From Escherichia phage PinkRuby: a stretch of DNA of 64,000 nucleotides. Below are positions 39,481 through 39,738 of the stretch, in pieces; positions within the stretch are counted from its first letter, which is position 1, and the number at the start of each line of letters is the position of its first letter. Location: the sequence record PP925839.1, one strand, 5' to 3'. Under the pieces are notes generated by a model. That model worked only from the letters and a program-made list of their open reading frames with translations. It did not search any database and was not told where the DNA came from. The position numbers and the translations under genes are program-made.

Positions 39481-39738
39481 TTATTTTAAATCTTCTAATC
39501 GTTTCTTCATCTTAGAACCATTTTTAGCAATTTCTCCTGCATCGGAGCATAACGCTAAAAGTGCTTTAACTTTAGTTTGGTCTCCTTTAAAAGACGAAGG
39601 ATCGACCGCAGCAGCAAGTTCTTTAATACGAGAGAAAAGACGCTCAGCTTCAGCTAAAGCCATTCCAAGCTTTACTTCCATACCGTGAGAAGATTCAGTG
39701 ATAGCAGTTTTTGTAGCAAACTCTTTGAAAGTTTTCAT
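39481..39738 (-). CDS. Internal-protein-like head protein with capsid targeting sequence
   Basis: 85 aa; N-terminus MKTFKEFATKTAITES; SD AGGAAA; occupies the ipI-equivalent locus next to 57B. Confidence 0.6.
   Translation of the reverse strand: MKTFKEFATKTAITESSHGMEVKLGMALAEAERLFSRIKELAAAVDPSSFKGDQTKVKALLALCSDAGEIAKNGSKMKKRLEDLK

Follow-up and report, generated by a model that had tools for sequence, protein, structure and literature searches.

An IPI-type propeptide with a different cargo: Ip5 as a candidate injected anti-defence protein at the ipI locus of T-even phages

Of the weapons that a phage directs at a cell, the internal proteins arrive first, and four of them have been assigned very narrow targets, namely Ip1, Ip2 and Ip3, which are directed against GmrSD subtypes, and Ip6, which is directed against McrBC. 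Ip1 inhibits the GmrSD of strain CT596; Ip2 and Ip3 each act on another, highly diverged GmrSD enzyme, with no cross-protection (Silas et al., 2025). Within the capsid-targeting sequence (CTS), targeting depends mainly on positions 4 and 7, according to work on IPIII, and processing takes place at an L/I-X-E motif (PMC9026906). The mature T4 protein, IPI*, has two small beta-sheets, on either side of which are its N- and C-terminal helices (PMC3012670). In T4-type genomes, cassettes combining a promoter with a stem-loop (PeSLs) have been proposed to serve as substrates of the recombination that shuffles modules at the IP locus (PMC4122927). The interval between 57B and trna.4 is filled by ipI in the T4 reference genome. 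The promoter/stem-loop arrangement at the IP locus is said to have been noted first by Repoila et al. in 1994, to whom the polymorphic internal proteins, Ip5 included, are reportedly also to be attributed.

The window analysed here, a stretch of 64,000 nucleotides from Escherichia phage PinkRuby (PP925839.1), carries in this hypervariable IP locus, between 57B and trna.4, an ORF of 85 codons plus stop (39481..39738, minus strand; ATG at 39736-39738 and stop codon at 39481-39483, as given by the ORF list and the sequence). The product is MKTFKEFATKTAITESSHGMEVKLGMALAEAERLFSRIKELAAAVDPSSFKGDQTKVKALLALCSDAGEIAKNGSKMKKRLEDLK, and an AGGA ribosome-binding site, read from the sequence and kept in the alignment with T4 ipI, lies 7 nt 5' of the ATG (39746..39749, minus strand). 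Upstream, on the same strand as the ORF, are the genes for the gp1 dNMP kinase (40508-41221, minus strand) and 57A (40266-40508, minus strand), followed by the immediate neighbour 57B (39811..40266, minus strand), which was assigned to the Acb1 anti-CBASS nuclease family by its Pfam match (PF23474 Acb1, E=2.6e-60) and by synteny with T4 57B. The downstream neighbour encodes a trna.4-type predicted membrane protein of 61 aa (39225..39410, minus strand; PHROG 1692, E=6e-35; synteny with T4 trna.4). On this side, the T4 trna.4, trna.3 and trna.2 homologs succeed one another ahead of the tRNA cluster. When the DNA of the window was aligned with that of T4 and of phage GiZh, the flanks proved to be near-identical, including the promoter, the ribosome-binding site and the first codons, the gene body alone being replaced. 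The first-pass annotation had placed the ORF at the ipI-equivalent locus next to 57B, and both the synteny with T4 and the DNA alignment agree with that placement.

Two further observations concern this neighbourhood. Both PHROG 755 and RefSeq records label 57B an ‘RNA ligase’, yet its Pfam Acb1 match is full-length, and the label is probably a propagated misnomer. Acb1 is an anti-CBASS 2H-phosphodiesterase. The tRNA gene cluster was located at positions 36700-38500 of the window by its match to the tRNA arrays annotated in ime09, GiZh and Bas37, and many spurious ORFs are listed across it.

It is practically certain that the ORF is Ip5, an internal protein of T-even phages that already bears a name and is not new. 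In a profile search, residues 1-85 matched positions 1-85 of PHROG 3499, ‘internal head protein’ (E=3e-49), and the product is 98-99% identical to Ip5 of T2 and 92% identical to that of RB70. The same ORF is annotated as Ip5 or ipV in T2, RB32, wV7, ime09 and GiZh, and as ‘putative internal head protein IP5’ in other records. The closest genome found for the 1.1-kb ip5 locus is that of the BASEL phage Bas38 (AugustSocin), at 99.8% identity. A single Ip5 copy is present in the window, which itself adds nothing new on this protein; neither Ip6 nor a T4-type IPI was found in it, a tblastn search with mature IPI returning no match.

The family is abundant within a restricted group of phages. Homologs of the 70-residue mature Ip5 are present in 494 phage records, and few proteins occupy the ipI slot more commonly. 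In 231 of these records the mature part shows an identity of at least 99% (T6, RB3, RB32, RB68 and wV7 are among them; 100% in RB32, wV7, T6 and others), and it is 90-99% identical in 37 more, including the Gaprivervirus ECML-359 (268 Tequatrovirus/Gaprivervirus records in total at 90% or above), and ~54% identical in 226 records of Mosigvirus (RB69-like) phages, including RB69ORF127c. In Gaprivervirus genomes, the Ip5 homolog comes after ip9. A search of 5.8 billion proteins yielded only five clusters, two of which are named Ip5 by their sources (T2, RB70), and phmmer against 1.84 billion representatives returned three proteins, all of the Ip5 family; given so few matches in both searches, the family is confined to T-even-type phages.

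Comparison of the ip5 mature region with the Gaprivervirus gene, 76% identical in DNA and 90% in protein, showed that 37.7 of the 48.3 synonymous sites have changed, at a dN of 0.08. Because the synonymous sites are saturated while dN is so low, the mature domain is judged to be under strong purifying selection. Likewise, the IPI-like N-terminus, the PHROG 3499 match, the occurrence in 494 records and the low dN together indicate that ip5 is a genuine gene rather than a chance ORF.

What Ip5 has in common with T4 IPI, besides the locus, is the propeptide. A CTS-like start, MKTFKEFATKTAITE, with an ITE site had been reported in the first-pass annotation; the sequence confirms both and places them on the minus strand. 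This CTS propeptide occupies codons 1-15 (39694..39738, minus strand), with a predicted gp21 site at I13-T14-E15|S16, and aligns with the T4 IPI propeptide MKTFKEFTSTTTPVSTITE, which is followed in T4 by ATLTSEV. The first seven residues (MKTFKEF) are identical in the two proteins, the key positions 4 and 7 both being phenylalanine (F4, F7), and both propeptides end in I-T-E, an L/I-X-E motif. The homologs lend weight to the predicted cleavage point: those of Gaprivervirus carry a different, 10-aa CTS (MQTYQTFITE or MKTYQTFITE) fused to the same SSHGMEVKLG start, and the Mosigvirus relatives have yet another propeptide, ending in L-N-E. Cleavage is predicted after E15 because different CTS versions join the same E|SSHG boundary in the homologs.

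Beyond the propeptide, the resemblance to IPI ceases. By BLASTP, residues 1-22 of Ip5 align with residues 1-26 of T4 IPI, 13 of 26 positions being identical, and the similarity ends after residue 22. No homology to the 76-aa IPI* domain was detected by BLASTP or, across the window, by tblastn with mature IPI, and the two beta-sheets with flanking helices that characterize IPI* have no counterpart in the AF2 model of Ip5, which contains helices only. The initial impression that the sequence is not that of T4 IPI therefore held up in the BLASTP comparison proposed for it, in which only the propeptide aligns, and orthology with IPI is ruled out by this result together with the different predicted fold. 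As judged from sequence, Ip5 shares with IPI the targeting module and the locus, not the cargo; all sequence criteria mark it as a typical internal protein.

The flanks of ip5 point to how such replacements might come about. On either side of the gene lies one copy of a 69-nt direct repeat, and the two copies are 84% identical. In the upstream copy (39758..39826, minus strand) are the 3' end of the 57B coding sequence with its stop (…DDLK*), an early-type promoter and a hairpin around the -10 element; in the downstream copy (39428..39496, minus strand) are the 3' end of ip5 with its stop (…EDLK*), the promoter of the trna.4-type ORF and a hairpin. Each copy thus spans the last four codons and the stop of the preceding gene, and it is for this reason that the unrelated 57B and Ip5 both end in …DLK. 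A promoter scan placed an early-type TTTACA-17-TACTAT promoter with an extended TG in each copy (39797-39769 and 39467-39439). In the DNA alignment, the upstream copy is conserved in T4 and GiZh, and GiZh, Bas35 and Bas37 possess an extra copy of the promoter segment of the repeat between ip5 and a second gene, ip6. The hairpin stems differ between the copies (TGATGAG/CTCATCA versus ATAGGGT/ACCCTAT), with pairing kept; they are only modestly more stable than shuffled sequences (z of -0.9 and -2.0), and we regard them as consistent with PeSLs without counting them as evidence. On the whole, the repeats flanking ip5 fit the published cassette-shuffling model.

The predicted mature protein, Ip5* (codons 16-85, 70 aa; 39484..39693, minus strand), has a mass of 7.5 kDa, a pI of 9.2 and a net charge of +3. 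An AF2 model built from a seven-sequence alignment (mean pLDDT 84) leaves residues 1-19 poorly defined, at low confidence, and contains helices at residues 20-44, 54-63 and 67-84, with block pLDDT values of 89-96 from residue 21 onwards; the prediction for mature Ip5 is thus a bundle of three helices, small and basic. Invariant across genera are K23, L24, G25, A27, E30, A31, L34, R37, I38, E40, L41 and A42 in helix 1, as well as K56, L61, E69, A71, K78, R80 and L81; K23, E30, R37 and E40 are surface residues. Helix 1 also includes two extra L/I-x-E motifs, LAE30 and IKE40, both conserved. Searches with the sequence produced only a sub-threshold DUF7890 match in Pfam, no match in PADLOC and, by profile against the PDB, only designed helical proteins. 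When the model was searched with Foldseek against the PDB, there were 0 matches, and a BFVD fold search recovered only Ip5's own family. None of these searches, whether by sequence or by fold, offers a functional clue.

That the protein may be an alternative inhibitor, injected and aimed at a different target, as the first-pass annotation proposed, is a reasonable suspicion; it is not a discovery, being the hypothesis that the field already holds for every protein of this kind. When ip4-10 were assayed against a panel of additional GmrSD groups and variants, no reproducible inhibition was observed (Silas et al., 2025). Both T2 and T6 possess Ip5, and published work shows that GmrSD-ECOR21, GmrSD-ECOR17 and the single-chain enzyme of UTI89 restrict these phages. 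Taken together, the null result with ip4-10 and the restriction of T2 and T6 mean that the simplest inhibitor idea has already been tried on a limited panel, without success, and that the target of Ip5 is not among the GmrSD enzymes tested so far.

A tempting assignment of Ip5 as the McrBC inhibitor can also be corrected. According to a preprint, bas37_0260 blocks McrBC, and a bas37_0260 knockout is McrBC-sensitive in K-12. Translating the locus genes of Bas37 (KarlGJung, MZ501089) for comparison, we found that bas37_0260 encodes the 77-aa Ip6, and that it is bas37_0261 that encodes Ip5, identical to the window ORF at 84 of 85 positions, the sole difference (A12T) falling in the propeptide. 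The McrBC inhibitor is therefore Ip6, the neighbour of Ip5, which is absent from the window, and the identification of Ip5 with it is ruled out.

A lead on a different target comes from the per-gene Bas37 transposon statistics in Extended Data Table 7 of the preprint, in which insertion counts are expressed as log2FC relative to K-12 BW25113. In the reference library ip5 (bas37_0261) is non-essential, 18 of its 18 TA sites being hit. In the uropathogenic strain CFT073, insertions in ip5 were depleted approximately four-fold (log2FC -2.09; mean counts 263 to 61; adj. p<1e-5), making it one of 14 significant genes in that comparison, and insertions in the upstream 57B/Acb1 (bas37_0262) were depleted as well (-1.56; adj. 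p 0.003). By contrast, none of the changes was significant in the four other clinical isolates, for which the ip5 and 57B/Acb1 values were, respectively, -0.01 and +0.13 (CFE299), -0.01 and -0.86 (CFE303), -0.13 and -0.83 (CFE331) and +0.26 and +0.48 (CFE336). The signal stems from pooled transposon data and was neither discussed nor validated by the authors of the preprint, and, because the upstream 57B is also depleted in CFT073, it could reflect polarity or an effect owned by 57B/Acb1. As it stands, it suggests that Ip5 matters only in CFT073.

From these data, on balance, we lean towards the reading that Ip5 is a CTS-targeted, packaged and injected protein that specifically inhibits an enzyme of host defence. 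Following the T4 paradigm, the IPI-type propeptide would direct Ip5 into the scaffolding core of the prohead, where the prohead protease gp21 would cut after Glu15 to yield the 70-aa Ip5*; the latter would remain in the DNA-filled head, be ejected into the cell with the DNA, and there bind and block one particular enzyme of the host's defences against hypermodified (glycosylated hmC) DNA. The last step is proposed in parallel to the action of Ip1, Ip2 and Ip3 on three GmrSD subtypes and of Ip6 on McrBC. The parts of this scheme differ in strength: packaging and processing are highly probable, judging by the CTS (our literature search found no virion proteomics covering Ip5), and an anti-defence role is, by analogy, reasonably probable.

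The first alternative to be weighed is that Ip5 is packaged as a basic filler of the core or of the DNA, with no specific target, and acts through charge neutralisation or the kinetics of head assembly, as is thought for IPIII. The small size and basic character of the mature protein (pI 9.2, net +3) would suit such a function, T4 internal proteins are present at ~360 copies each and loss of IPIII slows head assembly (PMC9026906), lysines of internal proteins contact DNA phosphates (PMC3012670), and the GmrSD panel yielded no target. Nevertheless, we consider a pure filler unlikely: a structural role should not be host-specific, whereas ip5 insertions are cost-free in K-12 and four clinical isolates and depleted in one host; the locus is one at which genes are swapped in and out and whose other characterized occupants, IPI and Ip6, are specific inhibitors; and four surface positions, K23, E30, R37 and E40, do not vary between genera.

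It is also conceivable that Ip5 acts mainly as a newly made early factor in the cytoplasm, its packaging being incidental or absent. The only promoter-like site directly upstream of ip5 is indeed an early-type sigma-70 promoter, and the late promoter motif TATAAATA nowhere adjoins the gene; its 14 occurrences in the window, compared with an expected 10.6, are not above chance and thus uninformative. However, the same promoter arrangement is found at T4 ipI, the product of which is proven to be packaged; one TATAAATA located inside gene 1 (40864-40871, minus strand) could provide late read-through; and the CTS determinants and the gp21 site are present in every family member despite the varying CTS sequence, which implies that they are used. 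An early cytoplasmic role as the principal one is, accordingly, improbable. Least probable of all is that gp21 cuts Ip5 into peptides at E15, E30 and E40, as it does gp22, gp67 and gp68, so that no folded Ip5* is delivered: gp21 requires just a short motif and cleaves core proteins at several sites, and Ip5 offers three L/I-x-E motifs (ITE15, LAE30, IKE40), with E30, I38 and E40 invariant in the family, but the two internal motifs lie mid-helix in a confidently predicted compact bundle, an amphipathic helix would give the same conservation pattern, and the whole 70-aa domain, helices 2 and 3 included, is under purifying selection.

If Ip5 is indeed a specific inhibitor, the CFT073 result would point to a candidate target. 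The immigration control region (ICR) of CFT073 contains two complete ORFs with GmrSD_N and GmrSD_C domains, one of 697 aa that ends in a DUF5655 tail (NC_004431 5162679-5164772) and one of 550 aa (NC_004431 5171396-5173048). At the position of these ICR GmrSD genes, K-12 carries mcrBC, hsd and mrr. Tentatively, Ip5 could be an injected, subtype-specific inhibitor of a defence present in CFT073 and lacking, or unused against Bas37, in K-12 and the four uropathogenic isolates; that the enzyme belongs to the GmrSD family is a slightly more doubtful proposition, and the two intact ICR enzymes (697 aa and 550 aa) are our best guess as leading candidates. Were this pairing correct, it would be the fifth between an internal protein and a Type IV enzyme, and would help to explain why phages of the T2/T6 type have retained Ip5 in the place that IPI holds in T4. 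The pairing of Ip5 with CFT073 is a concrete hypothesis that is testable with existing strains, and knowledge of the target would both add to what is charted of the contest between Type IV restriction enzymes and the proteins that inhibit them and help to predict which uropathogenic E. coli can serve as hosts of T-even therapeutic phages.

The annotation of one of these CFT073 genes merits a remark. c5421 is listed as the GmrSD homolog of CFT073 (He et al., 2015). At positions 22554-24773 of the NC_004431 stretch examined, RefSeq presents it as a DUF262 pseudogene and a separate ‘GmrSD domain’ CDS; the sequence itself is a single uninterrupted ORF with GmrSD_N, GmrSD_C and DUF5655, and the gene looks intact. 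Separately, the strongest CFT073-specific depletion in the transposon data concerns bas37_0239 and bas37_0240 (log2FC -3.62 and -6.49, with no effect in the other isolates), the homologs of which, 97-98% identical, are found in the window at 33314-33916 and 33961-34551 (both minus strand) and are likely to be uncharacterized counter-defence genes.

Ip5 is not the only CTS-bearing product of the window. CTS-like starts also characterize four further ORFs on the minus strand: MKTYQEFITE (29848-30321; PHROG 3155, ‘internal virion protein’), MKTYKEFIAE (30338-30655; PHROG 3966), MKTYAEFLTE (35518-36081, 187 aa; PHROG 2280) and MKSYAQFLNE (36207-36680; PHROG 2280). Together with Ip5, therefore, at least five candidate internal proteins are encoded in the window, none of which is T4 IPI or Ip6. 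The 187-aa product (35518-36081, minus strand) is 98% identical to bas37_0243, which was scored ‘Essential’ in the Bas37 transposon screen (1 of 48 TA sites hit); since the T4 internal proteins are dispensable, one would not expect a propeptide of the internal-protein type on the product of an essential gene.

Among the described systems, T4 IPI is close to Ip5 in genomic setting, its gene lying likewise between 57B and trna.4 with identical types of promoter repeat on both sides and the same ribosome-binding site, and in its long CTS of the MKTFKEF…ITE type, and the mature proteins are alike in size and charge (70 aa and pI 9.2 for Ip5*, 76 aa and pI 9.0 for IPI*). The two differ in the length of the propeptide (15 residues in Ip5 and 19 in T4 IPI) and in fold, Ip5 being predicted to be all-helical whereas IPI* has beta-sheets. 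IPI inhibits the GmrSD of E. coli CT596. T4 Ip2 and Ip3 are likewise packaged, injected, CTS-bearing anti-restriction proteins with one narrow target each, GmrSD-ECOR21 and GmrSD-ECOR17, respectively, both of which restrict the Ip5 carriers T2 and T6. The CTS is what they have in common with Ip5: unlike ip5, they are encoded at the other IP locus (denV-e), and family and homology searches detected no similarity between their mature parts and Ip5.

Ip6 resembles Ip5 in being a small CTS-bearing protein of the same locus, encoded directly downstream of ip5 in Bas37, Bas35 and GiZh, but its mature sequence is unrelated and near neutral (net charge 0, pI 6.5), and its knockout is McrBC-sensitive in K-12, where ip5 insertions cause no defect. 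In terms of the mature domain, RB69ORF127c and its Mosigvirus counterparts are true homologs of Ip5 (~54% identity over residues 7-67) and share its helix pattern and invariant residues, with a CTS of their own that ends in L-N-E. They differ from Ip5 in a C-terminal extension of ~8 residues and in their location between e and denV, an ipII/ipIII-type locus, and the DNA of their phages contains arabinosyl-hmC rather than glucosyl-hmC. The presence of the RB69 homolog at the e-denV locus indicates that one and the same domain has moved between both IP loci.
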